Of a DNA stretch of 64,000 nt, positions 1-64,000 are shown one piece after another (the first letter of the stretch is position 1; the number at the start of each line of letters is the position of its first letter). The stretch comes from Macrostomum lignano. Its lineage: Eukaryota. Location: the NCBI GenBank assembly GCA_002269645.1, contig NIVC01000436.1:62001-126000 (forward strand). Reading direction: 5' to 3'. The position numbers and the translations under genes were made by a program. Under the pieces are notes generated by a model. The model ran no database searches. It had not been told where the DNA came from and saw only the letters and a list, made by a program, of their open reading frames with translations.

Positions 1-3000
1 GGCTGGTGCCGGTTGTAGCCGTGCTGGTGCTGCTGTCTGCGGCTGCTACCGCCGCCGCCGTGCTGACGGCGAGAACTGCTGCTACGGCTGGATTGCGGGC
101 CGCCGCGACCGCCCCCTGGCAGGTAATCGTCGGCGTAGCTCTGATCGGAGTAGGGCGAGCTGAACTCGTCTTGCCTGCGGGGGGTGTTAGAGGAGACGGC
201 AATTTTAGTGGGATCAATAGCTTCAGTTTAAGCCCGGAGGCTGGCCCAGCAACTGAGGATCTGGGAGGCTGATGGCTTAGCAACTGAGGATCTGAGAGGC
301 TGGTGGCTCAGTAACTGATGATCTGGGAGGCTGGTGGCTCAGTAACTGAGGATCTGGGAAGCTGGCCTAGTAACTGGGGATCTGGGAAGCTGGCCTAGTA
401 ACTAGGGATCTGGGAAGCTGGCCTAGTAACTGGGGATCTGGGAAGCTGGCCTAGTAACTGGGGATCTGGGAGGCTGGCCCAGCAACTTAGGCTGGCTCAG
501 GAACTGACGATCTGGGGGTGGCGGATGTCAGTTTACAAAAATCGTGGTTTAAAGAAATGCCTAGACATACCTTCTGAAGTGGTCGCCAGAGCTTTCATAA
601 TGGTGATCGCGAAATTTTCTCCAGGACTTGTGATTCGATTTCACATAATCATCCGTAATCACCATGTCGGAGCGGTAACGACCTTTGCTGCCGCCTCGGC
701 CGCCAGCGCTGCCGCCGCCACCACTGCTGCCGCTGCCGCTGCGACCGTGGACGGCGCCACGATCGAATTCGGGCGGATAAAGTTGCTCGAATATCCTGCG
801 CAGATGATAAAGCAGATTGACAAAGTTGAAAAGCATGCTTGTAGAGACAAACTCCCCGTAAATCTAGAGACAAACTTCCTTTAAATCTAGAGACAAACTC
901 CCCGTAAATCTAGAGACAAACTCCCTGTAAATCTAGAGACAAACTCCCTGTAAATCTAGAGACAAACTCCCTGTAAATCTAGAGACAAACTCCCTGAAAA
1001 TCTAGAGACAAACTCCCTGAAAATCTAGAGACAAACTTCCTTTAAATCTAGAAACAAACTCCCCGTAAATCTAGAGACAAACTTCCTTTAAATCTAGAGA
1101 CAAACTCCCCGTAAATCTAGAGACAAACTCCCTGCACATCTAGAGACAAACTGCCTGTAAATCTAGAGACAAACTCCCTGCACATCTATAGACAAACTCC
1201 CTGTACATCTATAGACAAACTCCCTGTACATCTATAGACAAACTCCCTGTACATCTATAGACAAACTCCCTGTACATCTATAGACAAACTCCCTGTACAT
1301 CTATAGACAAACCCCCTGCAAATCTAGAGACAAAACTCCAGTAAAAAAAAGCAAGGCCGGTACTCACTTGTAACCGCTGCGACTTTTGCCGCCAGTCCTA
1401 GCCAGATCTTCCATGAAATCTCTCTGACACTTTTGGCTAGCAAAGTCGGCTTGCAGTTTCCTGCCGCAGAGATAACGATTCTTCATCTCCATAAGAGCTT
1501 TTTGCGCCTCGTCGGAATGATGAAAATATACTAGAGCTCGTAATCGATTGAAATTTAAGCAAACATTTCGAACCCGACCGTAAGTTGAGAACGTTTTAGA
1601 TAGGAATGATTCGCTAACGTTCTCGGACAGATTGCCCAACCAGAGACACTCGGTTGGCGGGGAGCGGCCGAATCCTAGCTTTGGCTTCTGGCCTTTCAAA
1701 GCAACCGTATCTGGCCGTTTTAACACGCCAACAACGCTTTTAATATCGGGAAATTGTACGAAAGCGTAGGCGCTGCAACTGCTGCCGGTGCTATTGTTGC
1801 CGCCAGGACCAGTGTTGCCGGAGCCGCTGTTACTGTTGCTGCTTTGAATTTTGATGTCGATGTCCTGATGAAGTTTATTTTAGGGTTTTTATTAACAAAG
1901 TCGATTTAATATTAATGCAGCGTGTTTTGAGTTGAGTCGGAACAAACATTACCAAGCAGTTGGCTCTTTAATAACTGTCTATGGCCAATAGATAGCCATA
2001 TAGAAATGAGTCTGGCCCATAGACAATTGGAAAGTACAAATTGCTACACGTAATTATAAAATAACTTGCAAATTCTTTTCCCACATGTTGTTGTCAGAAG
2101 AATTATTAGCAGAGACGAGACAAAAAAACGCGAGTACACAGTCCCAGAAAGTTTACAAACGAGAAATAAGGAGAAGCAAAAATGCATTTAAGAATGTTAG
2201 GCAGATCCAGTTAGCATCCAGAACTATTGTGGCCTCATTATTGGACTAGAAGAATACAGCTAGACAGACCCTGGGGGCATATTGCAGAAATTGCAGTTCA
2301 GTTAAGAAACACGACTAAAAAGTTTATTCTACATCTCACACTCAGGCAATACAGATGAATATGCTATGTGTGTAGATGTAGGCTAATAGAACAAGCCATT
2401 TATAAGGTGTATGAATAATTATGATAACAACAGAGTCCTCAATTAAATCCAAATTCTAGAAGTACAATTAAGAAGCCTCGATGTTAAATTTGCAAGGCAA
2501 CAAGCGAAGAGAGAAACGAGATTAGATGCTCTACCAGGAAGAAACAAAACGCTTAGACTAAGTTTAGATGCCAGAGAAAGAGAGAGAGAAGACTGAGATC
2601 ATATCCAACGGGGAGAGGAGACTGAGAGGGTGAGATCAGATCCTGTACGGGGAGAGAGGAGACTGAGAGGGTGAGATCAGATCCTGTACGGGGAGAGAGG
2701 AGACTGAGAGGGTGAGATCAGATCCTGTACGGGGAGAGAGGAGACTGAGAGGGTGAGATCAGATCTTGTACGTAGAGAGACGAGACCTGAGAGAGTGAGA
2801 TCAGATCCTGTACGGGGAGAGGAGACTGAGAGTGTGAGATCAGATCCTGAACGGGGAGAGAGGAGACTGAGAGGGTGAGATCAGATCCTGTACAGGGAGA
2901 GAAGAGACTGAGAGGGTGAGATCAGATCCTGTACAGGGAGAGAAGAGACTGAGAGGGTGAGATCAGATCCTGTACAGGGAGAGAGGAACTGAGAGGGTGA

Positions 3001-6000
3001 GATCAGATCCTGTACAGGGAGAGAGGAACTGAGAGGGTGAGATCAGATCCTGTACAGGGAGAGAGGAACTGAGAGGGTGAGATCAGATCCTGTACGGGAA
3101 GAGAGGAGACTGAGAGGGTGAGATCAGATCCTGTACAGGGAGAGAGGAACTGAGAGGGTGAGATCAGATCCTGTACAGGGAGAGAGGAGACTGAGAGGGT
3201 GAGATCAGATCCTGTACAGGGAGAGAGGAACTGAGAGGGTGAGATCAGATCCTGTACGGGGAGAGAGGAGACTGAGAGGGTGAGATCAGATCCTGTACAG
3301 GGAGAGAGGAACTGAGAGGGTGAGATCAGATCCTGTACAGGGAGAGAGGAGACTGAGAGGGTGAGATCAGATCCTGTACAGGGAGAGAGGAGACTGAGAG
3401 GGTGAGATCAGATCCTGTACAGGGAGAGAGGAGACTGAGGGGGTGAGATCAGATCCTGTACAGGGAGAGAGGAGACTGAGAGGGTGAGATCAGATCCTGT
3501 ACAGGGAGAGAGGACACAGGGTGAGTGATGCGACACAAAATAGACAGTTAAGACGGTGACTCACCAAAACATTGCCAAACCGAGACAGCGCATCGCGCAA
3601 ATCGGTTTCCCAGACAGTTTTGGGATCCAGATTGCCTACGAACAGAGTTCGCGTAGCCCTAGGGTGGTACTCGTCTGGAGACTGAGTCAATAGCAGAGTA
3701 GACGAAGAAGTAGAATCGTCGGCTTGAGCTGGCGGCTGCTGCTGCTGCTGTTGAGGCGACGCCACATGGGCGGAATCGGCCGCGCGTTTGACGCTTAAAT
3801 TGGCGCCGCAATAATGCTTGCCAGCGCGCGTAGTTTCCAGAGCGCGCTCGGCGTCGTCTGCACGCCTGTACATAACGGTGGCGTACCTATCCTCCAGGAT
3901 GCCGCCGTGCAATTGTACGCCTAATATCCTGCCCAGGCGGCGGAACTCGTGATAGAGGCCGCTCTGCAGGCTGGCGTCTGGGCGATAGGGGGGCGGCGGG
4001 TTGGCGAAATATGAAATTTTACTGATCTCCTCTTTGAGTTTCCTGGAGTACACCGAGTGAGTACAGCTGGAGGGGCACTGAAGGACAGGAGGATGGCACT
4101 GAAGGACAGGAGGATGGCACTGAAGGACAGGAGGATGGCACTGAAGAACAGGAGGATGGCACTGAAGAACGGGAGGATGGCACTGAAGAACAGGAGGATG
4201 GCACTGAAGAACAGGAGGATGGCACTGAAGGACAGGAGGATGGCACTGAAGAACAGGAGGATGGCACTGAAGAACAGGAGGATGGCACTGAAGGACAGGA
4301 GGATGGCACTGCAGCCTCACCTGACAACCTATCCGGCAGGTTGCAAATCTTCAACGTTCTCGATCTGTTGTCAATATCGACAGCGGTTGAATCGTTAAGT
4401 GCCGCTGTCGGGCTGCCGTCATCCCGCCTGCCGCAGGATTTGCTGGCGCTGCAAGCATGTTAATAAAATAATAAGTATTGTACTGATAACATGAATATTA
4501 GCGACAAAGGAGAAAGTCTACGTTGAAGAAAATTATAATTGCAAGGGTCTATCGGGGCTTGGGTTATAAGTGTATACATTTAACATTAATCTTAACATTA
4601 GCATTACGTGTACATTAATACATGCGAAAGGAGAAGGCATCGCAGTAATTCCATCACAGTTTGAAACACCCATCCACCACCCCACATTCCCCTGGGCCTA
4701 GCATAAGCTTTCGCCATGTCCTTGAGAGTTAAGAGAGAGTCCCTGAGAGATATATACTAATGCATATGCATAACTAGATGCATATATAAAATATATAACT
4801 AAAGCCCTAAAGCTCCCCCCCAAGGCCAAGCTAAAGAATCCCCACGTCAACTGTAGCAGGCTCAGCTCAATCCAAGTAGATGGAAAGTGGAAACGCTCGA
4901 GGGGGGATGGAGGGATTGGGGTCGGATGAAGAAGAGGGAGAGAGACTGGGCGCATTTGGGAACGGACTAGCGGAAACTGTGAAGCCAAGATCTACTAAAG
5001 CATTGCTCCCGCTGCCTCGGCTTCTCGCCGGGCCTCACAAGCCTTAGGAGAGGGGGGGGGTAAGAGCGGTGAGCAGAGGGACAGAGGCCCTGGGGAGGCC
5101 ACGAGAGAAGCCTACGCAGATGAGGAAAACAGGGAAAGAAGGGGATGGCGATGGGGAGGGTAAAAAATCGATATTCCTTATTCCCCAAACCCCCCAAGTC
5201 CTCTTACTTTACCAGGCCATGAGGAAATAAGGGGAAGAGAGGGAAGGAGCGCGAGATGGATTGGACAAGGCTTAGGTAGGACTAAAGGCAACTATAAACT
5301 CTGTATTATAGCCTTACTATAGGGCATGTATTCATTTATTGTATTGCGCGGCTTTGAGCCCCGGCGGGGTTGGCTAAGGGGTAAGGGATGGAATGAAAGC
5401 AAGCCTGATGGGCGGCTAGGGCTTGCCTGTGCACATTATATATAATGTAAAAGCTATGATTGAGAACAGCCCAGAGTTGCTGGCTTGCTGCATATAAACA
5501 GGAGAATGGATTAGCACGCAGATGTTGTACACGCTAGCCCAACTAGTAGTTCAGTTATATTTATATATTTATACTACGGCTACTACGATACGAGATGAAG
5601 AAGGGAAATGAAGGGGCTAGAGAATAAGTCGGGACTAGCTTGGGAAAGGCGGATGGGGAAATAGCGTGGGCTGGGCTGAGCTGACGAGAGAAGGGGGGAG
5701 GGGACTCCCAATACATGGTACATTCGCCTGTCTTACCCACCAACTTCCGCAGTTCCCCCCCGCCCCACAAGGAAGCTGCTCCTGATTGCAGGCCTCGTAG
5801 CTGTGCCTTTTTTCTCAGCAGCAGCCAGATCTGTCTCTATGTCTGTCCCAGATCTTCTCTAATTTTTCGTGTCTGTGAAACGCAGCTGTTTCTTAAAGCC
5901 TCAGCGCCTGCCAAATTATAAATGAATATTGGTATCAGAAACAGAGAGGGAAAGCAGGGGGAAAGGGACCAATGAGTCCATTGAGTAAAGGGCCTGGATT

Positions 6001-9000
6001 TTAGCATCAATGTATGCATGAGATAATTACTAAAAAATTATTCCAGGCAAATAGAACAGGGAAAGAAATTCGGATTAAGCCTAGGGATTAAGGATTATTT
6101 AGCCCCTTCTTAAAAGCCTTTAGCTCGACAATACGAAGGATATATAATAAAATAAAGCTAAAGAGAAACTGATCGTGACGGTCGATTTGTATCGAAAGAT
6201 ACTTTTCTTGCTGTATAACACGTTATTTTTTAAAGAGGAAATTGGGAATCATTCTCGCATTTAATACTATAACTAAGGCTAATAGATATATCTCTGTAGC
6301 AGCAGATGCGCCGATGTGAAGATTACACTCAAAGGCAAAGGGGCAATGGGGCATTTATTTCTCTTTTTGCTCCCCCCCCCCCGATTTTTCTTCTGTTCTT
6401 GACTCGCTTAACATTTAGAATTCGCCTTAGCAAGCAGACAGCTAGACTATAATTGTCGAACAGCTCCCATGAGCGTAGCTCAGCTGCAGATTTTCTAAAT
6501 AATCTCTAGACCAAGTCGGGCAATAATCCCCTTCCCTCACCTCAAGAAAAGAAAACACCCCGTGATTCAGCAAGCTCTGAGCGATTGTTTAAACGGCGTA
6601 TAGACTATCACGTACGTAAAGTCTTGAAGAAGCTTATTTGTCGCAACTCGCAATTATGAAATTGCATCATAATTTCTGAAACAAAATGCCATCTTATTAC
6701 ATTTAAAATATACACAGTAATTTTTTTAAACAGGACAAGAGATATGGGTTAGACTTTAGACCTACAACTGCGCTTTTAGATATGTTCTGTTAGTTACAAA
6801 GAATTGCTTTGTCAATGCTATAGTTAAAAAAACAGATAATAAATATAGGATAAAAATGAAGACAGCTAAGCTAAATAGAGATTTCTAAGGCGTGCTAACG
6901 GCAGCCCAGAATTGGGAGGGAATTGGCTGGGGTAAAGAATGGGGCCACTGGAAATAGAAAGTAGAAAAAAGAGAGAAAGAAGCTTTTTTTGGGCTATTGG
7001 ACTGCAGTTGGGTATAGTAGAGCCTACACAAGAGAGGAAAGACAGGGAAGGAAATGCTTTTTTGGCTTTCCAATTCCAACTAAAAGCCGCGCATAGTCAG
7101 TCAGGCACGCACGTTCGCGCCTTACTTTAATTGTACAGTGTACAGTTTTTACACAAGTTCAACAATTCCAAGGCATACACTAGGCATTAGATTAGGAAAA
7201 AATCTTTCTACACGACGCAAACGCCAGTTTTAGAGGGGGGAGGGGGGAATTCTGTGTGTGAACGTTCAAGTTCTGTTCAGGGCTCGGGCTTGCCTATTGC
7301 CTAGGTTTAGCAACCCCATACCCCAACTCCCTCAGTCCAAGCCCCAGCACCCCTTTTAACCCAAACGCCTGCCTCCCGCCTATATAATCAACATAGCTTG
7401 GAAGTTTGGGGCGGGCACGGGGGAATGGGGTGGGGCGTCATAGATAAGGCTTAGTATTAGTTATATATATACGTATAGAATATAGGGTTATACATATAAA
7501 AGGATACAAGGGGCGCGCGCTGTGTGCGCACAAACCGACAAGCACCCACCCCACTCTCCACTGGGGGCTACACAACACACTTAATATTATAAGCTTAGTA
7601 ATGACTGATATGTATAATAGGTTCTATACTATAGGCATGCAAAGACCTGGAGTTGGGGGGGGAGAGAGGGGGGAGTGGAGTGGAAAGGACGGGAAGGGTT
7701 TTTGGGGCCAAAAAGGCTTGGCCTGTTTCTCTTTCTCTCTCTTATTCTCGCATTGTGAATGCTTTGTAAACCCCACCCACTCCTCACTGGCATAGTCCAG
7801 TCCAGTCATACATAGCCCTTCCTAACCCCCAACTTAAAATTGTAATATAGTAAAGTAAGGCTTTCTTATTCTCTATAGCAGAGCTTTATATATGCATACT
7901 ATTATGGTATAGAAAAAAACGTCACTGTCACACACACACACAACAGAACAGGCTAGAGCTCCACAACTTTGAAAACCCAAGTGTAGATAGGTATACAATA
8001 GAGTATGAAGAGAGCCAGCCAAGGGCTGCCTTAGTATATAAAATATAGGCGCAGGCTAAAACGCGCACACAGAGAAGAACTAGGGGCTTGTGTGCTGTGC
8101 AAAAATGAGTAATAATACGCACGGCCCTTTCCCCTTAGTTCTAATTATGATATATTAACTAAGTATTCTATTGTGATTGTGAATTGCATTGCACTGCGTG
8201 CAAGTTTTCAAAAAAAGAAGCCTTGGTCCAAATACATAAACAATACGCACACTGCACAAGTAATTACGCACGCCACAACAGTGAACCATGGGGCTATAAT
8301 GTAAGAGCATTTTACACTAAACACTTAATAAGCCTGCAAAACCAAAGCCTGCTTAGGCAAGTTTTTTGTTCGTTTTTTCAGACTTCTCTGTCTATAGATG
8401 CATAATATACAACTTAGCGTCTTTAAGAATGAAATTAGTAACAGAAACTTATATATAATACATATTCTACTAGAGCTATTAAGAGTGGAAGAATAAATGC
8501 AACAAAAATCCGTACCTGCTCGGCGGACTGTTGTTATTATTAACGCTAGTCGTTGTAGACGAACCGTTCTCCAACACTGGAAGCCTGCGAATAATGATAT
8601 TAGATTATTAGAATATTCATAGTTTTGAACTCACAAATTTCTTTCCTCGTCAATCAATAAATGAAATAGATTAATCCAATGACCATCGTATTAACACGCT
8701 CAAGGCTCACTTATCAAATTTGACGCAAGCGGAATCTTTTAATCGTTGCAAACCCGGTTCGCCTGACTGATCGCAATATTCGGACGTCAACGACTGTCCA
8801 TCAAGCAAATGAATGCCTGTGCAAGCTTTAACGGCTGTTTTTGTATCCAGAAATGATAATACTGCTCCTCTAAGTTGGCCGGCCTCGTGAATCTTGGTGC
8901 TCAGAATGCGACCGTAGCTAGAGTAGTGAAAAAGTTGGAATGAAAAGTACAACCAGTTAGTTATTATGAATCGAGATTAGAATAAACAAACATACACAAT

Positions 9001-10829: not shown

Positions 10830-21562
<10,733 letters not shown>

Positions 21563-48342: not shown

Positions 48343-50031
48343 CATCAATTGGCAAAGTCTGGGCAGCATCATCACTCTGATATTATGAATGGAACTCCAG
48401 CTCATAGTCAGCCCAATGCTGGGCCGCCACCTCATCAGCATCATCCAGTACCAATGTCGCCTCATCAACACCTGCCACCAACACCACAGCCGCCATCATT
48501 CTGGTGGCCATTGGGCTCCTATCACGCTGCCGCCGCTGTCTATCAGGCCCAAAGTGGCAGCAGATATGAACAATTGTATAATCCATTTAGCGGAGCCGCC
48601 TATGGCCAGCAGCAGCAACAGCAGGCTCTGTCGCCTAGTGATGACCAACAACGGCAGCCCGTTTCCTCTGCTGTTCAACAGTCTGCGCCGCCGCCACTGG
48701 CTCAGAATTCTACTCTGACAAGGAATAGCTCAGCGAATGAGAAGCCAGTGACACAGCAGCAGCAGGAGGAGCAATCCTTTTGTGGATTTAAGTGCAAGAT
48801 CTGTCAGCAGGTGAGCGTTTATTAGTTGACAGCCAATAGCGAAGATCGATAGATTCAAGAACGGGTGGCATAGCTGATCACTAGCTATGTTTCCTTGACT
48901 AGCCAATTGGGGCCAATGCTAAGTAGTGCTAAGTTCAAGTAATATGCTGGCTTAAGGCTTTGATGTCTATTTATACGAGCTAGTTACTAATTTAAACCTC
49001 TTAGAGCCTAAATTCCATAAATTCTATAGGATATACTCAAGAACTACTCAAAGTAGGGCAGGAAACTACGTTTTTTTGGAAAATTTTAGGAGGCAATTTC
49101 TCCGTAAATTATATTACGGAGAATGGAGGTTTTCATTTTTTAGCATAAGATTTGTATTTGCTTTTATATCGAATGTCAGCTTGTCAAAATATGAACATTG
49201 GGTCTGCCTGCTATCAAAAGCAATAATTTTAGTTTCCCGTCCTACTTGAGTAGTCCTTGTTGGATATGCTAATTTTGATTATTACTTCAAATCTATCGAA
49301 TGCGAATACAGTGTTTAATATTTGGAACCCGGCTTTTTCCAAGCTACAATACATTCCCTGCCTCCTCCCCATTCACCACACGCCAACCGCAGCTCTGCTT
49401 CAGCAAGCAGGATCTGCAACAGCACAACAGTGCGGCGCACAAAACTGACGCCAGGCCGCACCAATGCGACACCTGCGGCAGGCAGTTCGCTACAGCTGCC
49501 TACCTGGGCCAGCACAGGCGAATTCACACCGGTCTGAGGCCGTACGGTTGCAAATTCTGCGACAAGCGATTCACCCAGCTGTCTCATGTGCAGCAGCACG
49601 AACGGGTGCACACTGGTGACCGGCCCTATCGTTGCTGTCACTGCGCCAAAACATTCGCCCAGATGAGCAACCTGCAGAGTCACCAGCGCCAGCATCAGCG
49701 CGACAAGCCGCACAGGTGCGCCGCCTGTCGGGCCTGCTTTGACACTCGCGACGATTTGGACACGCACACGGCTGCAAAGCACGGCGCCAACAGGTACAGC
49801 CGGGTGCTGCTGTGTAGGATCTGCAACAAGGCTTACAATTCTGAGACTTATTTGGCTAAGCATCTTAGTAAGCACGAGCAGCAGTATAGGCAGGCTGGCG
49901 ACGTCGGCGCCGGCACTAGCAAAGATAACGCCGCCGCTAGCGACGAGGTCGGCGATGTCGGTGGAGGAGTATCGTCCTCGACTGCAGCCGCGGCAGCTGC
50001 TGCGGTGGCCGCCTTTAAGTTTCCATTCTAG
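48343..50031 (+). CDS. ZNF384: C2H2 zinc-finger transcription factor, ZNF384/ZNF362-Rotund-Lin-29 family (6 fingers)
   Basis: Exons 48343-48810 and 49393-50031 join in phase 0, splitting the first finger (CKICQQ|LCFSKQDLQQH). TQLSHVQQHERVHTGDRPY, SNLQSHQRQH..DKP and AYNSETYLAKH are characteristic of the family. Possible upstream exon 46045-46086 (MGWNLINSFLMLMP|GTAAG), or start at ATG 48385. Confidence 0.88.
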
Positions 50032-51411: not shown

Positions 51412-52410
51412 TTAACCCCTCTCACGGTAGCTTTGGCACCCCCTCTCACTGTAGTTTTGGCGCCCCCTCTCAGGGTAGCTTTGGGGCCCCCTCTCAGGGT
51501 AGCTTTGGGGCCCCCTCTCAGGGTAGCTTTGGCACCCCCCTCTCACGGTAGCTTTGGCACCCCTCTCACGGTAGCTTTGGCACCCCCTCACTGTAGTTTT
51601 GGCGCCCTCTCTCACGGTAGCTTTGGCACCCCTCTCACGGTAGCTTTGGCACCCCTCTCACGGTAGCTTTGGCACCCCCTCTCACGGTAGCTTTGGCACC
51701 CCTCTCACGGTAGCTTTGGCACCCCCTCTCACTGTAGTTTTGGCGCCCCCTCTCACGGTAGCTTTGGCACCCCTCTCACGGTAGCTTTGGCACCCCCTCT
51801 CACGGTAGCTTTGGCGCCCCCTCTCACGGTAGCTTTGGCGCCCCCTCTCACGGTAGCTTTGGCGCCCCCTCTCACGGTAGCTTTGGCGCCCCCTCTCACT
51901 GTAGCTTTGGCGCTGATAGAGTGAGATTGATCAGTTGATAAGAGTGAGATTAACCCCTCTCACGGTAGCTTTGGCGCACCCTCTCACTGTAGCTTTGGCA
52001 CCCCCTCTCACGGTAGCTTTGGCGCTGATAGAGTGAGATTGATCAGTTGATAGAGTGAGATTGATTAGTTGATAAGAGTTAGATTAACCCCTCTCACTGT
52101 AGTTTTGGCGCCCCCTCTCAGGGTAGCTTTGGCGCTGATAGAGTGAGATTGATCAGTTGATAGAGTGAGATTGATTAGTTGATAAGAGTTAGATTAACCC
52201 CTCTCACTGTAGTTTTGGCGCCCCCTCTCAGGGTAGATTTGGCGCTGATAGAGTGAGATTGATCAGTTGATAGAGTGAGATTGATTAGTTGATAAGAGTT
52301 AGATTAACCCCTCTCACTGTAGCTTTGGCACCCCCTCTCACGGTAGCTTTGGCACCCCCTCTCAGGGTAGCTTTGGGGCCCCCTCCCACGGTAGCTTTGG
52401 CACCCCTAGC
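51412..52410. repeat. Composite minisatellite, 24-25 bp unit with interspersed GATAGAGTGAGATTGATCAGTT blocks
   Basis: CCCCTCTCACGGTAGCTTTGGC(A/G)CC repeats, with ~94-bp composite units in the distal half. Confidence 0.93.
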
Positions 52411-55400
52411 TCTTCCGTAGCTTGGCCGCCCTCTTCCATGGCTAATTTGGCGCCCCTAACGCAAACGTGCATGCAACAAGAAATCTTTTCTAGTTTCGCC
52501 CCTGGTTAGCAGCGTAAAAATAAAACAATAGCAAATTGAACACCAAGTTGAAAAATTGCAACATCAATATACTAACAGAAAATTAAAGAATGAACCGATT
52601 ACCTGAAATTTTATAATATCATTTTGCACTCACATGTATAGTCAAAATCAGCAGCGTGTAGACTGTAGAGACTTAACAATTGAAAAAAAAAACAAATAGA
52701 AGTAATATACAATTACCTCACTACATTAAAATAGCGAAACTTACAATAGTTGCATGTTAAAAACAATTCTAGAAAATACTATTGCTACTTGAAGTAGAAC
52801 GATGAAAAAATCCGAATATTTTAATTGAAAGATTCTAAAATATTTTTTCAAAGAATAGACGACCAGATATAAGCAATTGAATTGATCAGTTTCTCCGTTT
52901 GAAAAGCCTCTAGGAAGCGGCGGGCGCGTGATCCGTATTCGAAACTACTAAGGGATTCCGAATGGCTTGATTTTGGAGGTGGGGTGGGTGTCAACCCTCC
53001 TCGCCTCTCATTGGCTGGCGCCCCGATCACTAGGTGATCGATACCCGTATCGATATCGGCGCTCGGCGCGCGCGCGCCGCAGGCGCGTGGCGCCAAGCGC
53101 CGCAGGCGCACCCTCCCGATATTAGATCCCAATAAATCAATCAGATCCCAAATCAATCAGATCCCAAATCAATCAGATCCCAAGCGCACCCTCCCGAGCC
53201 GCAGGCGTCCATGCAGCAGGCGCCCCTCCCCGCCGCACGCGCCCTCCCCGACATGTATGCCGCAGGCGCCCTCCCCGTCTCAGGCGCCCCTCCCGATATG
53301 TATGCGCACTCTCCCTATATGTACACCGATATGTATGCAGCAGGCGCCCGAGTGTACACTCCCCGATATGTGTGTACACCGATATGTAGTCATCGATACG
53401 GGCCTCTTCCCCTCTCTCACCTACATCTCAACTAGCGAAATCGAACCCAGGTCGCGCCCATACTAGGACACTACACGGTTGTGGGGTATAGGGAGCGAGA
53501 AGTTTCAACCCTAACGCTGACGCAGCCCTGTACAGTGAGAGTGTACGGGCAGAGAGGGGTGGCGCGGACAGAGAACCAGCCACTAGGTTGTTATACTGTT
53601 GAAGCATAGGGAGCGAGAAGTTTTAACCCCGATGCTGACGCAGCCCTGTACACTGAGCGTGTACGGGCAGAGGGTGGGTGGAAAGAGATGTGAATAACAC
53701 AGCCTGCTGCAGGAGCCGGATAGAGAGGCGCATGCTAGGACAGAGAGGTAGTGTGAGTCACACACACCCCACAGAGAAAGCCATACAGAGGATAGAGAGC
53801 TCCCTCCCCAGTTGCAGGGGACAGAGAGGCAGGCAGGGTATGCAGGGGCATGCGAACCGTCAAGGGGCCACGCGAGGATAGAGTGGAGGAGCAGAGATGT
53901 GTTTGGACAGAGAGCCAGCCACGTGTGCGTAGTGTGAGGGAACAGAAACATATGGAGCAGGAGGGAGATAGGAAGCAAACGCGCAGGGTAAGGGAGCCAC
54001 ACAGGGCGGTACAGTGAGACACGGGCAGGGGTGGAGCCGTGCGTGGACAGAGCTGAACGGCACGGTCAGCTGCAGGAATAGGATGATAGAGAGGCGCGGA
54101 GGGGGACAGAGAGCAGTGTGCAGGGGTAGGCAGCCACGCAGGCTGGGGAACAGAGAGGCGCGTGTCAGCCAGTTGCAGCCCGGGACAGAGAAGTATGAAG
54201 GGGGGCCTGGGACAGAGTTCCGAGCAAGGCACAGAGGTAGGGTCCTGTAGCTATGTATAGGCAGGGAGCCACGCGAGGGCAGGACAGGGGAGCAGACATG
54301 CAAGTTGCATGCAAGGCCAGAGAGGTGTGCGCGGAGGGAGACAGAGAGCAGTGTGTAGGGGTAGGTAACAGCAAACTTTAGTAGCGGCGCGTGCGGGGAC
54401 GGAGAAACCAGTCAGAGCATACAGAGACGTTACAGAGAGGTACACAAGCAGAGACCAAAGCGAGCAGAGCACATGTGTAGGGACAGAGACGTGAGGGAGA
54501 ATCGACCAAAACACGCTATGTATTTTCAAAAGTTGGTTTTAGTGCAACATGTTTAATAGTGGGTAGTATAATAGTATGTACATAGTAGGTATAATAGTAG
54601 TAATAATAGTAAGCATATTAGCCCAAAAGGTAGACTAAAACAGGCTAAACTGTGTGTACGCATCCTCATCACCCCACAAGCCCCCTCTCCCGCCAGACTC
54701 ACTCTACCAAACCTGTATTGCTGCATGAAGGAAAATATAGTGTAAAAATACAGATCTTAACCGTCAGACCGCTGAAATCAGGGCACACTAGAGGGGGTTT
54801 CGGGGTCTGCATGCTCTATGTAAGCTGCTTGAGGAGGTTCCAAGGGCGTTGTGAGGGTTTCCATTATGTTTTGAAAAAAACTAGAGGCTTAAATACAACG
54901 TTTTATTCAAAAGTAGGTTATTTTAATGAAATAGCTGACACAATCATTGTCGAGAGTAGAAATTTTTATAAGAAACCAGGCATTTTAGCAAAAATAAACC
55001 TTCAAACCACATAAAATTGAATAAAAAGCAGACATTTTCAATTATAAACCGCAAGTATTTTAATAGAAAAGTAAGCAAACAAGGCACAAAACCAGCAAAT
55101 TTTACCTTTTTATTTTAATGTTACTGATAAGGTAGAGAGTAGAAACTTGTGAGCTGTACGGAGTTAGAAAGTATTAACCATTATGTATCGTATGAATTAT
55201 TAGTTCAGTACCAGCCATTGGTCAAGCGAGCATTTATGAAGTTATTACGAGTGATGAAGGGATAGAGAGCTATATACAGGAAGACAGTATCCTTCTAAAC
55301 CACCACGAACAGATTGCTAATAGAGATAAGCTTTGTCTGTGTGCAGTATGAGTAAGCGAAGGCGGGGCAAATACTTTTCCACATGCCGGACAGAACAGTA

Positions 55401-57459
55401 TTGTGCTAGGATTTCTCTCGAAATCGCGGTACGTTACTAGTTTTTATCACACCATCCAGATGCGTCAACTAGTCAGCAGTAGTCATTTATATGTTATTAG
55501 AACTTACAAACCCAGGTCAAGTAAATATTACAAAGAGTATATTACGTACACACACCAACTACGAATACCAAGCCATACTAGTCTACTTGCAGTGCTCCTG
55601 GAGGGAAGGGACGGCGGGGTGTACATCCGGCAGGGTGGGCGTCCAGCGAGTGTACATCTGACAGGATGGGTGTTCAGCAAGTGTACATCTGACAGGGTGG
55701 GCGTTCAGCAAGTGTACCTTCAGCGTCGAGTAGGTGTACACCCGTCAGTGGGAACTCAGCCCCTCCCACCAATGTCGTGTGCATGCGGTTAGTCAGTATA
55801 GTGGTGGGGTAGACGGTGCAGGAAGGAAACCCAGATGCTGACGCTGCCCTGTACAGCGAGCAACCAGCCCTCCTGTAGCAGGAGGGGGACAGAGAGTGCG
55901 TGGAGGCAGTAGGAGATAGAGGACGCTACCCGGCATGTCGCAGCACGCGGCGCGGGACAGAGAGGCAGTGTGTAAGTCACCCCCACAGGGAGAGCTGCCC
56001 TGGCAGGAGGCGCGGGACAGAGAGGCGGTGAATCACACCCCACGGAGAGAGCCGTACAGCGAGCTTCCCCACCCGAGTCCGGTAAATATTACAGAGTATT
56101 ACGTGCACACGCCAGCCCTGAATACCAAGCCATACTAGTCTACCTGCAGTGCTCCCAGAGGGAAGGGATGGTCAGGAGTTACACACCAAGAATGCATTCA
56201 TACAAAGAGTACACAACTCGAGCCCAGACACCAAGTCACAGTCTACTTACAGTAGAGATGGTAGATTAATAGCAAGATTATATTACAATTAGACCTCCCT
56301 AGCACATGAGGAGTGAAATTCAATAATAATTGAATTCAATAATAATACAACATTTAGACGTAGTAATTTAATTACAAAATACCACTAACACTGAGCCAAC
56401 GAATTGTAGGTTACAAAGGAGTTGCCACTCATATGGAAAGCCAGTATAATGCAGGTGTATATTATTAAAACATAGACAAAAACGATGCAGACGTATATAC
56501 ACACTATTGATTTTGTACATGTACATTTCGGCATATTACCACACATCGCAGGCACATATTATATATCGGGGGATAGGTTAAAATACACACATCGTAGATG
56601 TAGAAGCAGACACAATGCAGGAAAATTATGATACGAGTGTACATATTAGTGCGTAAAAGTATCATATTATGACACCCTGTAGCACATATTGACATAATGC
56701 AGGGGAAAATATTGACAGAAATAGTACACAATTGTAGAGGTAACAACCCGCCAACTAGTAAGGACATCCAGCACTTGTTCAGGTTTTTATTATTTCGAGA
56801 CGAGTGTCATGCCCCCGCAAGAGATCTTATCAGAAATTTGTTGAACTCCACTGCAACTCTCCCAGAGCCTCCAAATGTGAGTTTTTAACCCAGGGTCGAG
56901 TACAAAGGACCCGCCCACTCTTAACCCCAAGGGGTGATCGTAGCGGAGACCAAGTACAGTGCGGACGGAGAGGGGTAACAGAAAGCGCTGCATCAGACCG
57001 CAGGGCTGCATTCCTCCCCGAGGTAGGCGCGTCAGCTCCCACTCCTCATTTAACCATCAAGTAAACTAAAGAAGTCAAGCAGAAAGCCTTACAATCACCC
57101 GCAACCAGCACAAGTAAGAGTACTTTCCACTAGAGAGCCATAGTGCAAGATTCGCGAGCCAAGTTGAAGAAGCACACCAAATTACACTAAAGACATATGT
57201 ATTAAAAAGCATACCGGCACCTCTACAAAAACACAGTATGTACCGATTAAAGTTGCTTTTGGTGCAGTGTATTTAATAAAAAGCAGGTACCTAACACAAA
57301 AGTAGGCATCAATGCAGTGCACGGACTAAACTGTATTTACAAACGCAGGGCAACGAACTACACACAATGTAGCGCATAGACATAATTGTACGCATAAATG
57401 TACGCAATTTCCGGTATATAGGACCACATGCACGCAAATGCACACAATGCACACAAACA

Positions 57460-57485
57460 AACACACACACACACAAACACAAACA

Positions 57486-57528
<43 letters not shown>

Positions 57529-57615
57529 AGGCGCATCCTGCAGAGCGCATCCTGCAGCGCCGATCGCCGCAGGCGATGGCGCCATCGGCAGGAAGCTCTT
57601 GCTGTGAATACGCCT

Positions 57616-57652
<37 letters not shown>

Positions 57653-57680
57653 GTGTTTGTGTGTGTGTGTGTGTTTGTTT
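57460..57680. repeat. (CA)n and (TG)n microsatellites flanking the palindrome axis
   Basis: CA-rich run 57460-57526, mirrored by TG-rich run 57618-57680. Confidence 0.95.
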
Positions 57681-58065
57681 GTGTACATTGTGTACATTTG
57701 CGTACATGTGGTCCTATATACCGGAAATTGCGTACATTTATGCGTACAATTATGTCTATGCGCTACATTGTGTGTAGTTCGTTGCCCTGCGTTTGTAAAT
57801 ACAGTTTAGTCCGTGCACTGCATTGATGCCTACTTTTGTGTTAGGTACCTGCTTTTTATTAAATACACTGCACCAAAAGCAACTTTAATCGGTACATACT
57901 GTGTTTTTGTAGAGGTGCCGGTATGCTTTTTAATACATATGTCTTTAGTGTAATTTGGTGTGCTTCTTCAACTTGGCTCGCGAATCTTGCACTATGGCTC
58001 TCTAGTGGAAAGTACTCTTACTTGTGCTGGTTGCGGGTGATTGTAAGGCTTTCTGCTTGACTTCT

Positions 58066-58440
58066 TTAGTTTACTTGATGGTTAAATGAGGAGTGGGAGC
58101 TGACGCGCCTACCTCGGGGGAGGAATGCAGCCCTGCGGTCTGATGCAGCGCTTTCTGTTACCCCTCTCCGTCCGCACTGTACTTGGTCTCCGCTACGATC
58201 ACCCCTTGGGGTTAAGAGTGGGCGGGTCCTTTGTACTCGACCCTGGGTTAAAAACTCACATTTGGAGGCTCTGGGGAGAGTTGCAGTGGAGTTCAACAAA
58301 TTTCTGATAAGATCTCTTGCGGGGGCATGACACTCGTCTCGAAATAATAAAAACCTGAACAAGTGCTGGATGTCCTTACTAGTTGGCGGGTTGTTACCTC
58401 TACAATTGTGTACTATTTCTGTCAATATTTTCCCCTGCAT
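58066..58440 (-). CDS. Possible 124-aa ORF inside the palindromic element (mirror copy 56697-57069 is frameshifted)
   Basis: ATG-initiated, non-repetitive ORF MQGKILTEIVHNCRG... No family recognised. Confidence 0.2.
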   Translation of the reverse strand: MQGKILTEIVHNCRGNNPPTSKDIQHLFRFLLFRDECHAPARDLIRNLLNSTATLPRASKCEFLTQGRVQRTRPLLTPRGDRSGDQVQCGRRGVTESAASDRRAAFLPRGRRVSSHSSFNHQVN

Positions 58441-61400
58441 TATGTCAATATGTGCTACAGGGTGTCATAATATGATACTTTTACGCACTAATATGTACAC
58501 TCGTATCATAATTTTCCTGCATTGTGTCTGCTTCTACATCTACGATGTGTGTATTTTAACCTATCCCCCGATATATAATATGTGCCTGCGATGTGTGGTA
58601 ATATGCCGAAATGTACATGTACAAAATCAATAGTGTGTATATACGTCTGCATCGTTTTTGTCTATGTTTTAATAATATACACCTGCATTATACTGGCTTT
58701 CCATATGAGTGGCAACTCCTTTGTAACCTACAATTCGTTGGCTCAGTGTTAGTGGTATTTTGTAATTAAATTACTACGTCTAAATGTTGTATTATTATTG
58801 AATTCAATTATTATTGAATTTCACTCCTCATGTGCTAGGGAGGTCTAATTGTAATATAATCTTGCTATTAATCTACCATCTCTACTGTAAGTAGACTGTG
58901 ACTTGGTGTCTGGGCTCGAGTTGTGTACTCTTTGTATGAATGCATTCTTGGTGTGTAACTCCTGACCATCCCTTCCCTCTGGGAGCACTGCAGGTAGACT
59001 AGTATGGCTTGGTATTCAGGGCTGGCGTGTGCACGTAATACTCTGTAATATTTACCGGACTCGGGTGGGGAAGCTCGCTGTACGGCTCTCTCCGTGGGGT
59101 GTGATTCACCGCCTCTCTGTCCCGCGCCTCCTGCCAGGGCAGCTCTCCCTGTGGGGGTGACTTACACACTGCCTCTCTGTCCCGCGCCGCGTGCTGCGAC
59201 ATGCCGGGTAGCGTCCTCTATCTCCTACTGCCTCCACGCACTCTCTGTCCCCCTCCTGCTACAGGAGGGCTGGTTGCTCGCTGTACAGGGCAGCGTCAGC
59301 ATCTGGGTTTCCTTCCTGCACCGTCTACCCCACCACTATACTGACTAACCGCATGCACACGACATTGGTGGGAGGGGCTGAGTTCCCACTGACGGGTGTA
59401 CACCTACTCGACGCTGAAGGTACACTTGCTGAACGCCCACCCTGTCAGATGTACACTTGCTGAACACCCATCCTGTCAGATGTACACTCGCTGGACGCCC
59501 ACCCTGCCGGATGTACACCCCGCCGTCCCTTCCCTCCAGGAGCACTGCAAGTAGACTAGTATGGCTTGGTATTCGTAGTTGGTGTGTGTACGTAATATAC
59601 TCTTTGTAATATTTACTTGACCTGGGTTTGTAAGTTCTAATAACATATAAATGACTACTGCTGACTAGTTGACGCATCTGGATGGTGTGATAAAAACTAG
59701 TAACGTACCGCGATTTCGAGAGAAATCCTAGCACAATACTGTTCTGTCCGGCATGTGGAAAAGTATTTGCCCCGCCTTCGCTTACTCATACTGCACACAG
59801 ACAAAGCTTATCTCTATTAGCAATCTGTTCGTGGTGGTTTAGAAGGATACTGTCTTCCTGTATATAGCTCTCTATCCCTTCATCACTCGTAATAACTTCA
59901 TAAATGCTCGCTTGACCAATGGCTGGTACTGAACTAATAATTCATACGATACATAATGGTTAATACTTTCTAACTCCGTACAGCTCACAAGTTTCTACTC
60001 TCTACCTTATCAGTAACATTAAAATAAAAAGGTAAAATTTGCTGGTTTTGTGCCTTGTTTGCTTACTTTTCTATTAAAATACTTGCGGTTTATAATTGAA
60101 AATGTCTGCTTTTTATTCAATTTTATGTGGTTTGAAGGTTTATTTTTGCTAAAATGCCTGGTTTCTTATAAAAATTTCTACTCTCGACAATGATTGTGTC
60201 AGCTATTTCATTAAAATAACCTACTTTTGAATAAAACGTTGTATTTAAGCCTCTAGTTTTTTTCAAAACATAATGGAAACCCTCACAACGCCCTTGGAAC
60301 CTCCTCAAGCAGCTTACATAGAGCATGCAGACCCCGAAACCCCCTCTAGTGTGCCCTGATTTCAGCGGTCTGACGGTTAAGATCTGTATTTTTACACTAT
60401 ATTTTCCTTCATGCAGCAATACAGGTTTGGTAGAGTGAGTCTGGCGGGAGAGGGGGCTTGTGGGGTGATGAGGATGCGTACACACAGTTTAGCCTGTTTT
60501 AGTCTACCTTTTGGGCTAATATGCTTACTATTATTACTACTATTATACCTACTATGTACATACTATTATACTACCCACTATTAAACATGTTGCACTAAAA
60601 CCAACTTTTGAAAATACATAGCGTGTTTTGGTCGATTCTCCCTCACGTCTCTGTCCCTACACATGTGCTCTGCTCGCTTTGGTCTCTGCTTGTGTACCTC
60701 TCTGTAACGTCTCTGTATGCTCTGACTGGTTTCTCCGTCCCCGCACGCGCCGCTACTAAAGTTTGCTGTTACCTACCCCTACACACTGCTCTCTGTCTCC
60801 CTCCGCGCACACCTCTCTGGCCTTGCATGCAACTTGCATGTCTGCTCCCCTGTCCTGCCCTCGCGTGGCTCCCTGCCTATACATAGCTACAGGACCCTAC
60901 CTCTGTGCCTTGCTCGGAACTCTGTCCCAGGCCCCCCTTCATACTTCTCTGTCCCGGGCTGCAACTGGCTGACACGCGCCTCTCTGTTCCCCAGCCTGCG
61001 TGGCTGCCTACCCCTGCACACTGCTCTCTGTCCCCCTCCGCGCCTCTCTATCATCCTATTCCTGCAGCTGACCGTGCCGTTCAGCTCTGTCCACGCACGG
61101 CTCCACCCCTGCCCGTGTCTCACTGTACCGCCCTGTGTGGCTCCCTTACCCTGCGCGTTTGCTTCCTATCTCCCTCCTGCTCCATATGTTTCTGTTCCCT
61201 CACACTACGCACACGTGGCTGGCTCTCTGTCCAAACACATCTCTGCTCCTCCACTCTATCCTCGCGTGGCCCCTTGACGGTTCGCATGCCCCTGCATACC
61301 CTGCCTGCCTCTCTGTCCCCTGCAACTGGGGAGGGAGCTCTCTATCCTCTGTATGGCTTTCTCTGTGGGGTGTGTGTGACTCACACTACCTCTCTGTCCT

Positions 61401-62202
61401 AGCATGCGCCTCTCTATCCGGCTCCTGCAGCAGGCTGTGTTATTCACATCTCTTTCCACCCACCCTCTGCCCGTACACGCTCAGTGTACAGGGCTGCGTC
61501 AGCATCGGGGTTAAAACTTCTCGCTCCCTATGCTTCAACAGTATAACAACCTAGTGGCTGGTTCTCTGTCCGCGCCACCCCTCTCTGCCCGTACACTCTC
61601 ACTGTACAGGGCTGCGTCAGCGTTAGGGTTGAAACTTCTCGCTCCCTATACCCCACAACCGTGTAGTGTCCTAGTATGGGCGCGACCTGGGTTCGATTTC
61701 GCTAGTTGAGATGTAGGTGAGAGAGGGGAAGAGGCCCGTATCGATGACTACATATCGGTGTACACACATATCGGGGGAGTGTACACTCGGGGCGCCTGCT
61801 GCATACATATCGGTGTACATATAGGGAGAGTGCGCATACATATCGGGAGGGGCGCCTGAGACGGGGAGGGCGCCTGCGGCATACATGTCGGGGGAGGGCG
61901 CGTGCGGCGGGGAGGGGCGCCTGCTGCATGGACGCCTGCGGCTCGGGAGGGTGCGCTTGGGATCTGATTGATTTGGGATCTGATTGATTTGGGATCTGAT
62001 TGATTTATTGGGATCTAATATCGGGAGGGTGCGCCTGCGGCGCTTGGCGCCACGCGCCTGCGGCGCGCGCGCGCCGAGCGCCGATATCGATACGGGTATC
62101 GATCACCTAGTGATCGGGGCGCCAGCCAATGAGAGGCGAGGAGGGTTGACACCCACCCCACCTCCAAAATCAAGCCATTCGGAATCCCTTAGTAGTTTCG
62201 AA

Positions 62203-62423
62203 CCCGTCGACCGTTGATCAAACGGCAGCTCTTCTAAGAAATTCGATGCGGATGCTGATTCGCTGTCGGCTACGCTGGCAACGACAACTAATGTGACAAT
62301 GCCGGCAACCACTAGCATAACTAGTATCAGAACTTTTATCACACTCAAACTATCGAGTCGGCCTGATCGGCTTCTTGAACCCTGCTGCTCAGACTCGTGT
62401 TGATCCAGCTGGTACCGGTGCAT
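62203..62423 (-). CDS. Putative small single-pass membrane protein ORF, interrupted by the palindrome (3' end at 52937-52910)
   Basis: MHRYQLDQHES...VIKVLILVMLVVAGIVTLVVVASV has one hydrophobic segment. Removing the palindrome gives an 84-aa ORF ending STGSNTDHAPAAS*. Confidence 0.4.
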
Positions 62424-62589
62424 TGCTGCTGCTGCATGCAAATGCAATCTCTATTGTGGCAGCATGTACTGCTGTTGTGCACCCGGAAGTTTCTCACGGA
62501 TCTTTTAAAACTAAATCAGTCTGCAATAAATGAGAGCGAAGCTTTGTGGAGTGAGTTGATTCTGAACATTTTCCACTCCTCTTCCTTTC

Positions 62590-63720
62590 CACCCTATCCT
62601 TGCTCCTCTACACCTGTTCCTTTCCTCTATCCCTGTTTCTCTCCTCTACACCTGTTCCTCTCATCTACACCTGTTCCTTTTCTCTACCCCTGTTCCTCTC
62701 CTCTACACATGTTTCTCTCCTCTACACCTGTTCCTCTCCTCTACACCTGTTCCTTTTCTCTACCCCTGTTCCTTTTCTCTACCCCTGTTTCTCTCCTCTA
62801 CACCTGTTCCTCTCCTCTACCCCCGTTTCTCTCCTCTACACCTGTTTCTCTCCTCTACACCTGTTCCTTTTCTCTACCCCTGTTCCTCTGCTCTGCCCCT
62901 GTTCCTTTTCTCTACCCCTGTTTCTCTCCTCTACACCTGTTCCTCTCCTCTACACCTGTTCCTCTTCTCTACACCTGTTTCTCTCTTCTACCTCTCTTTT
63001 TTTCTATCCCTTTACCTCTCCTCTACGCCTCTTTCCTATACTCCTGTTCCTTTTTCTCTATCCTTGTTCTTTTTCTCTACCCCTGTTCCTCTCCTCTACA
63101 CCTGTTCCTTTCCTCTATCCCTGTTTCTCTCCTCTACACCTGTTCCTCTCCTCTACACCTGTTCCTCTCCTCTACCCCTGTTTCTCTCCTCTACACCTGT
63201 TTCTCTTCTCTACACCTGTTCCTCTGCTCTACCCCTGTTTCTCTCCTCTACACCTGTTCCTTTTCTCTACCCCTGTTCCTCTGCTCTACCCCTGTTCCTT
63301 TTCTCTACCCCTGTTTCTCTCCTCTACACCTGTTCCTTTTCTCTACCCCTGTTCCTATGCTCTACCCCTGTTCCTTTTCTCTACCCCTGTTCCTTTTCTC
63401 TACCCCTGTTCCTCTGCTCTGCCCCTGTTCCTTTTCTCTACCCCTGTTCCTCTCCTCTACACCTGCACCTGTTCCTTTCCTTTCCACCCCCTGTTCCTCT
63501 CCTCTACACCTGTTCCTTTTCTCTACCCCTGTTTCTCTCCTCTCCTCTACACCTGTTCCTTTTCTCTACCCCTGTTCCTCTGCTCTACCCCTGTTCCTCT
63601 GCTCTACCCCTGTTCCTTTTCTCTACCCCTGTTCCTCTGCTCTACCCCTGTTTCTCTTCTCTACCCCTGTTCCTCACTTATACCTATCTTCTCCCCTCCA
63701 CTCCTGTTCCTCTCCTTTAC
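62590..63720. repeat. Pyrimidine-rich degenerate minisatellite, ~18-19 bp unit
   Basis: CTCCTCTACACCTGTT(C/T) and TTTCTCTACCCCTGTT variants. Source of the spurious 250-450 aa ORFs. Confidence 0.95.
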
Positions 63721-64000
63721 CGCTCTTTTTTCTTTCTTTCCTCTACCGCTAGCTACTATTCTCCTCATTTCTTTCTCCCCAGTAATCTATTACCTTTTGG
63801 TAGGAAAACTTGAACAATCATTTGCATTTTTAAGCAACATCAAATAAAACGCAGAAAAAATCTAATAAGATTTTATAACGAAATGTAATCTCTCTAGTGC
63901 TTTTTTATATTCGGAAACTTTAGCACAGCTGAATTGTGTTCTGATGCTTTAAAATCAAAACGAATAGCGGAACCTGAGGATATTAAACTGCAGGCAACAA

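Follow-up and report, generated by a model that had tools for sequence, protein, structure and literature searches.

The palindromic element and its insertion site

The window analysed here, a stretch of 64,000 nucleotides from Macrostomum lignano, contains a non-coding palindromic element of 9,253 bp (52944..62196, assigned to no strand), with the ends ACTACT…AGTAGT, which interrupts a small spliced-leader gene on the minus strand. We describe the element and this gene, the family to which the element belongs, and two classes of gene-bearing elements, here termed A and B, with which it shares its tips. Alignment of the element with its own reverse complement gave 99.3% identity over the full 9,253 bp, and self-alignment divided it into a left arm (52944..57525, plus strand), an asymmetric central spacer of 93 bp lying between (CA)n tracts (57526..57618, no strand) and a right arm that is the reverse complement of the left one (57619..62196, minus strand). 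The inverted repeat also includes both copies of the TTCGAA that flank the element, and ends at the first base beyond them. The mismatches between the arms are five single-base C indels away from the centre, with the extra C always in the right arm, and, close to the centre, four C/T changes and a difference in (CA)n length; the arms also contain internal short repeats. No long open reading frame (ORF) or transposase was found in the palindrome through the ORF list, Pfam or tblastn. Pfam searches with three of its short ORFs and an Rfam search of the whole element returned no matches, and tblastn against it with the protein-primed polymerase (pPolB), PC4-like, integrase, capsid, protease and ATPase proteins likewise found none. 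A bacterial promoter/terminator scan was blank, such a scan being uninformative for animal DNA. The element is not an autonomous Polinton: it has none of the genes of one, and it does have the 6-bp target-site duplication and the terminal repeats, with (ACT)2 at both 5' ends and repeats that cover the entire element.

The original prediction for this locus had read TTCGAA at both junctions and argued for a true insertion whose empty allele should exist. Both copies are indeed present (left 52938..52943 and right 62197..62202, neither with a strand), in a window where this hexamer occurs 8 times and is not rare by itself, and the empty allele was found in contigs C173 and C1756, in which the flanks are joined across a single TTCGAA. 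The two window flanks, queried separately, both match these contigs, and colinearity with the window extends leftward for ~18 kb in C1756 and ~4 kb in C173, mostly at 85-99% identity. In the DNA-type run X2 the empty form occurs alongside the left junction, the latter including the first 30 bases of the element. The existence of three copies of the insertion locus is consistent with the hidden polyploidy reported for Macrostomum lignano (PMC10468722).

The length of the duplication, which had been left at 6, 4, 2 or 0 bp, was settled at 6 bp by the flanks of other copies: those of paired family copies rule out 0, 2 and 4 bp, 9 of 9 such copies having 6 bp, as do 54 of the 59 elements with both ends (62 examined). 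Two further sets gave 14 of 15 (19 examined) and 8 of 9 (19 examined). Some loci are shared between sets, and a few sites represent a single insertion that two contigs carry. The ACTACT…AGTAGT termini that a 6-bp duplication implies were confirmed across the family, and in a genome search with the left end the similarity typically begins at ACTACT (best 40 of 265 candidates scored). TTCGAA itself was rejected as a preferred target, as it accounts for only 1 of the 54 duplications; 2 of the 54 are self-complementary, and the palindromic nature of the site is incidental. The 54 target sites display a weak symmetric bias, with A at position 2 in 26, a pyrimidine at position 3 in 42, a purine at position 4 in 45 and T at position 5 in 23. 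An A element (C173:199634-208632) lies 1.4 kb from the empty site in C173 and is missing in C1756; hence, two independent insertions of the ACTACT family have occurred within 1.5 kb of one small gene.

The interrupted gene

The 5' part of the host gene lies to the right of the element on the minus strand (62203..62520), with a spliced-leader acceptor at 62521-62522, the start codon at 62423 and a membrane-type helix. Its 3' part lies to the left (52556..52937, minus strand) and comprises the last codons, the stop at 52910-52912 and an AT-rich 3' untranslated region (UTR), with the poly(A) site placed at ~52556 (minus strand) by homology with C173. We could reproduce the earlier reconstruction in which the flanks, joined across one duplication, complete an 84-aa frame with one transmembrane helix. 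The frame is intact in C173 and C1756, it has a single hydrophobic stretch (19-residue Kyte-Doolittle maximum of 3.27 from residue 31), and the proposed shift from a GC-rich flank up to the stop to an AT-rich one beyond it holds, with GC content falling from 0.62 over the 34 coding bases that adjoin the element on its left to 0.28 over the next 200. The 84 codons are the same in both empty copies and differ in the window copy at two bases, both residue-changing, which are too few for a selection test. The insertion point falls in codons 74-76, downstream of the hydrophobic helix; the element thus separates one copy of this gene from its final ~9 codons and its 3' UTR, and the interrupted allele is left with a read-through frame of 106 aa (62103..62423, minus strand) that ends 94 bases inside the element.

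A transcript of the empty allele, the other check that had been proposed, was found as RNA-type contigs covering ~825 bases in all 3 runs searched, which come from three studies. All three contigs have a non-genomic 5' end matching the published 35-nt M. lignano spliced leader (PMC8629364), and one has a poly(A) end. None of the runs was recorded as RNA, and their nature was judged by spliced joints (X9, X13 and X17) or by the leader (X11). The 84-codon gene is transcribed, with a spliced leader and poly(A), and its protein product, identical to a public Macrostomum lignano hypothetical-protein model, is only predicted. No relative of this protein outside M. lignano was found among 10 candidates of 46-147 aa, Pfam gave weak matches only, and the 'APP_amyloid' label carried by the public model P0065 was not reproduced with the frame of P0063. 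Two other ATG frames are found in the host transcript (C173 stretch 4551-5376, minus strand): one of 9 codons that uses the ATG of the leader itself, and one of 30 codons, out of frame, that begins 14 bases upstream of the 84-codon frame. With these short frames present, the 84-codon frame may be translated weakly or in a regulated manner.

Public gene models treat the insertion as an intron, and the reversed end motif at this locus may permit splicing of the insert from the host gene. We therefore considered whether the element leaves host RNA as a 9.26-kb GT-AG intron, so that the gene still yields an 84-85-aa product. Two models, P0064 and P0065, have the substitutions of the window allele on both sides of the element and are exactly reproduced by a donor one base ahead of the duplication combined with either AG of the AGTAGT end, giving introns of 9,259 and 9,256 bp; and run X17 has 3' UTR pieces bearing the indels of the window copy. 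These models are, however, translated from genome coordinates, and an empty-site transcript aligned across the insertion gives an identical result. Further, the donor context is weak, the acceptor would fall within a long RNA stem, and an AATAAA in the gene's direction, 188 bases into the element, favours early termination. Neither the junction-diagnostic base nor the coding-side substitutions of the window allele occur in any RNA contig of the 3 runs, contigs being prone to drop rare variants; likewise, no RNA contig bridges the host-element junction, which is not evidence of absence. On balance we consider splicing of the element unlikely, and the models illustrate how public annotation can conceal such an insertion as an intron.

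The palindrome family and its tips

The elements that we fetched from the genome fall in three main classes, the A elements, the B elements and the palindromes, along with short derivatives. With exact patterns we recovered 165 tips of the ACTACT type, against 1 in the control, and, for a sister family of the ACTACG type, 142 tips against 0. Comparison of ends showed that the terminal 31-32 bp of the window element (52944..52975, plus strand, mirrored at 62165..62196, minus strand), which begin with the (ACT)2 tip and continue into a modular stretch that varies at positions 8-25, are common to A and B elements. Indeed, the terminal repeats of an A element (C211) and a B element (C181b) are alignable over bases 1-32 only, at 100%, and each of three variants of tip positions 8-18 is found on A elements, B elements and palindromes. 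Tip positions 8-25 (window 52951-52968) behave as interchangeable blocks amid conserved surrounding bases, and the two ends of one copy match in 50 of 59 elements, with unequal tips in the other 9; template switching just after initiation is one guess as to how blocks are exchanged. Beyond the tip, the first ~300-390 bp of the left arm resemble the A terminal repeat (89-93% over 176-283 bp), and an internal piece (55615..56071, plus strand; arm 2672-3128), mirrored in the right arm at ~59066-59522, resembles the B terminal repeat at 70-80% and is flanked by two direct repeats that are 81% alike. Palindromes are 6.7-9.4 kb long (median 8.9), as against a median of 9.5 kb for A elements and 10.5 kb for B elements, and members of the sister family measure 6.6-9.9 kb.

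The central spacer is kept across the family and was found at no fewer than 41 places (best 40 of 58 candidates scored). In 13 of a further 18 stretches with the spacer, arms in inverted orientation flank it on either side, and in no stretch is it next to A or B genes; of the five one-armed stretches three enter the same non-coding tandem-repeat insertion and two extend a short way into the second arm, with no genes reached in any of them. The shared spacer in two-armed copies implies that a single fold-back event founded the family and that it is the complete palindrome that moves. When arms were compared over 1.8 kb, 8 of 9 copies had 0-3 differences between their own two arms, while different copies were separated by up to 57; over 0.7 kb, the corresponding figures were 0-2 in 7 of 7 copies and up to 28. 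The nearest copies are 0-1 base apart over 1.8 kb; thus the palindrome family, gene-less as it is, has recently multiplied. The centre of the element has a stable predicted DNA hairpin (z -5.6, partly owing to 12 bp of the arm), and the 93-bp spacer is predicted to be the hairpin loop of a folded strand. C1283, considered as a half-size parent, was rejected as a derivative, since the spacer is present and one arm is mostly missing; other half-size forms (C1242 and C1300b) are without the spacer.

Of 20 stretches from the ACTACG sister family, four, 9.2-9.9 kb long, are at least 98% palindromic, and the one that we compared (C657) has no similarity to the window arm, which indicates that palindromes have formed at least twice. 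At two sites of this family, each seen on two contigs, inverted host flanks replace the duplication, reflecting either extension of the palindrome into host DNA or an assembly error. Several elements of the whole system have other sequences nested within them: in palindrome copy C106 a canonical Polinton that retains its ends and duplication, a non-coding tandem-repeat insert beside the spacer in C2693, C1330, C1872 and C5246, long interspersed nuclear elements (LINEs) in C1945 and C2286, two copies of an unidentified 806-aa frame in C558a, and a P-element-type THAP transposase in C2132.

Two complementary classes of gene-bearing elements

The A elements of the ACTACT family are 9.0-9.8 kb long with terminal repeats of ~0.9-1.2 kb, and encode a protein-primed polymerase (PF03175) and a PC4-like gene. 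GT-AG introns interrupt the polymerase frame at motifs A, B and C; RNA contigs from two to three of the 3 runs lack them and the DNA run retains them, implying that A is expressed and spliced. One A element (C691, stretch 1000-8600) has two more introns near the 5' end of the polymerase and one in another A gene, again absent from RNA contigs and retained in the DNA run, and an ACTACG-family A element (C1263) carries PC4-like and dUTPase genes. The nearest relatives of the A polymerase outside Macrostomum have ~31-33% identity; the canonical Polinton polymerases of the same genome did not align with it, and no relative was found among viral contigs in a search sensitive to close relatives only. 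Frames of 1,507 and 875 aa in two A elements proved to be nested LINE reverse transcriptases rather than element genes.

The B elements measure 10.5 kb without inserts. Their rve integrase passes the Pfam cut-off, and a 427-aa protein, which a sequence search of solved structures failed to detect, has a predicted double-jelly-roll capsid fold (pLDDT 96) that matches the major capsid proteins of PBCV-1, an iridovirus and virophages (mavirus and Sputnik) with E values of 1e-18 to 1e-14. The protease and the ATPase have weak Pfam matches (E 0.07 and 0.016, respectively) together with similarity to frames of canonical Polintons, and a penton-like frame is so labelled from gene order only. ACTACT-type B elements start with a Fic-domain gene (C150 stretch 4884-5687; E 7e-14).

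The gene contents of the two classes are complementary. In tblastn searches pPolB was present in 17 of 17 A elements, all of which lacked the integrase, capsid, protease and ATPase, whereas these four were present, and pPolB absent, in 9 of 9 B elements; both classes were located through their own genes, so that only the absence of the complementary genes counts as a test. Nine palindromes (that of the window and 8 others) are without any of these genes, and pPolB and integrase occur together in 0 of 59 elements with ACTAC-type ends, a set to which the C106 copy does not belong; an autonomous Polinton would combine the two in 13-25 kb, and sizes here are typically 9-10.5 kb. Canonical Polintons of 16-17.5 kb, with integrase, AGTAGT…ACTACT ends and 6-bp duplications, are abundant in this genome, and vertebrate Polintons are described with the same ends, (AGT)2//(ACT)2 (PMC8097293). 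With its Polinton lead the original prediction pointed to the correct kind of element, and the end motif that it remarked on as non-canonical is real; the palindrome, however, does not belong with the canonical elements but is a third, gene-less member of a separate, split Polinton-like system with a reversed motif.

Proposed mechanism and alternative explanations

Considering together the observed insertion and its 6-bp duplication, the size of the family, the tip variants, the A/B gene content, the spliced A RNA, the spacer and the arms homogenised within copies, we regard the palindrome as a gene-less, multi-copy element that shares tips and duplication with A and B, and is likely to be a fold-back (snap-back) satellite that they copy and insert. 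Replication, packaging and integration would be provided in trans by A and B proteins, and the terminal 31-32 bp would act as both replication origin and integrase site. In protein-primed replicons initiation by sliding or jumping back at repeated tips, strand displacement and template switching yielding end-derived subgenomes have been described (PMC4974454), and panhandles of displaced strands have been proposed to restore end homology (PMC11886824). By analogy, the A polymerase would begin at the (ACT)2 tip by jumping back, and the displaced palindrome strand would fold to a 4.6-kb hairpin with one duplex origin, the copying of which would rebuild the full palindrome and equalise its arms. 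The retrovirus-type integrase of B would then insert the product with a 6-bp stagger at weakly chosen sites, and the 8-9.4-kb size of the palindromes may reflect packaging in the B capsid, as is hinted by the size match between palindromes, A and B. A hairpin intermediate predicts arms that are closer within a copy than between copies, and such a pattern is seen.

Several points weigh against this proposal, in addition to the manner in which A and B were located. Only integrated copies have been observed, and free linear, hairpin or packaged DNA has not been seen. The rest of the arm, beyond the A-like and B-like pieces, has no recognised source, and no coding parent of the arm was found beside the spacer in the 18 spacer-bearing stretches. 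The arms of C660 are unequal and mixed, with 42 differences, and this, together with the unequal tips noted above, indicates that homogenisation is incomplete; moreover, chromosomal gene conversion or assembly polishing could also equalise arms. The hint of packaging is tempered by the scatter of sizes and by much shorter derivatives, of 0.5-5 kb, which also keep both ends. Finally, the abundant canonical Polintons of the same genome also possess an integrase and 6-bp duplications.

This last point leads to an alternative in which the palindrome is copied by the A polymerase and is integrated or packaged by the canonical AGTAGT-ended Polintons, with B being a separate parasite. The numbers of these 16-17.5-kb elements and the nesting of one of them within a palindrome copy would suit such an arrangement, but we find it improbable given that canonical ends carry the opposite motif, that the B integrase is merely 34-35% identical to the canonical Polinton integrases of the genome, and that B tips are exactly those of the palindromes. 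Whole-length inverted arms, internal short repeats and the lack of coding capacity also recall the foldback-type families (FB, Galileo or Mutator-like), and on this view the palindrome would be a non-autonomous cut-and-paste element, with terminal repeats of extreme length, that depends on an unrelated DDE transposase. Such families make duplications of 7-11 bp, whereas here the duplication is uniformly 6 bp and the tips are variant-for-variant identical to those of elements with pPolB or with integrase and capsid; the sole transposase met, in a genome that was not searched for transposases, is the THAP protein of C2132, which we read as cargo, and this explanation appears somewhat more doubtful still. 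Least credible is an origin of the palindrome in mis-assembled fold-back long reads, or its formation in place after insertion, for although the five single-base arm differences, all an extra C in the right arm, look like read errors and four sister-family stretches (two sites, two contigs each) have inverted host flanks, exact 6-bp duplications occur at many unrelated sites, one spacer is common to at least 41 copies, the left junction recurs in the independent DNA-type run X2, and two public gene models are derivable only from the insertion allele.

If the palindromes are satellites of A and B, they bear on several questions. How animal Polintons replicate and form particles is still known mostly by inference, and palindromes with homogenised arms would be indirect evidence for a protein-primed strand-displacement cycle, whole-length palindromes being an expected by-product of such a replicon with panhandle intermediates. 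As A and B have only the 31-32-bp tip in common, the system offers a natural map of cis signals, and segment-sized palindromes in two sister families are a testable hint of packaging. Satellites linked to A and B would also account for the giant palindromes of the Macrostomum lignano genome. We suggest only tentatively the wider possibility of a live three-part virus-like system in the germ line, consisting of a polymerase segment, an integrase/capsid segment and packaged, hairpin-replicating palindromes that swap tips, the last being in effect heritable defective-interfering genomes. Were such palindromes to compete with their helpers, they would constitute a heritable, self-made brake on an endogenous virus.

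Other features of the locus

Long tandem arrays of 20-, 24- and 19-bp units, which are host repeats, occupy window positions 16800-19700, 51416-52433, 62603-63721 and others; the arrays at 51416-52433 and 62603-63721 are also present in the colinear copies. To the left of the insertion, at a distance of ~3 kb, there is a C2H2 zinc-finger frame (C173 stretch 420-1193, homologous to window 49300-50031).

Comparison with known systems

Foldback elements such as Drosophila FB and Galileo have very long inverted arms and non-coding copies, as seen here, and differ from the palindrome in duplication length, end sequence and helper enzymes. Hairpin and palindromic derivatives of the yeast plasmid pGKL1 were reportedly described by Kikuchi in 1985. 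The snapback genomes of adeno-associated virus (AAV) (PMC10924063) and the template-switch subgenomes of phi29 (PMC4974454) are palindromic or end-derived and gene-poor, like the palindromes, and they keep the origin and need helper proteins, as the palindromes probably do. All these forms are transient, whereas the palindromes are integrated in the germ line, form families with a conserved spacer, and mix A-type and B-type terminal sequence.

The closest likeness is to Polintons/Mavericks (adintoviruses), which have a 6-bp duplication, terminal inverted repeats (TIRs) and a short repeated end motif (PMC8097293, PMC10748475, PMC8502044), and whose pPolB, rve integrase, double-jelly-roll capsid, protease-like and ATPase-like genes are jointly present in A and B. 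The (ACT)2…(AGT)2 ends are in contrast the reverse of the commonest Polinton motif and lie outside the three vertebrate motifs listed in the source (PMC8097293). Further unlike Polintons, the genes are distributed over two ~10-kb elements, the polymerase has spliceosomal introns, and the window element is gene-less and fully palindromic. We know of no integrase in bidnaviruses. These viruses are comparable in their matching segment termini and in the protein-primed polymerase on one segment, and differ in being parvovirus-like (PMC8502044), while here the capsid is of the double-jelly-roll type and all parts integrate. Incomplete Polintons have been reported in butterflies, where they lack polB and are apparently mobile (10.1101/2025.02.07.637071), and in C. 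elegans, as TIR-plus-pPolB loci without integrase (PMC11414722). They share with the present system the missing core gene, but as described there they are neither whole palindromes nor gene-less, and have no complementary partner related through the tip only. In the parts of the literature that we covered (PMC3014272, PMC6431247, PMC10748475, PMC10924063, PMC4443254) no whole-palindrome Polinton satellite, ACTACT-first Polinton ends or split Polinton is described; Repbase and the 2006 founding paper were outside this scope, so that a prior description is possible. What the present analysis adds is the connection between the palindromes and the two gene-bearing classes, A and B.

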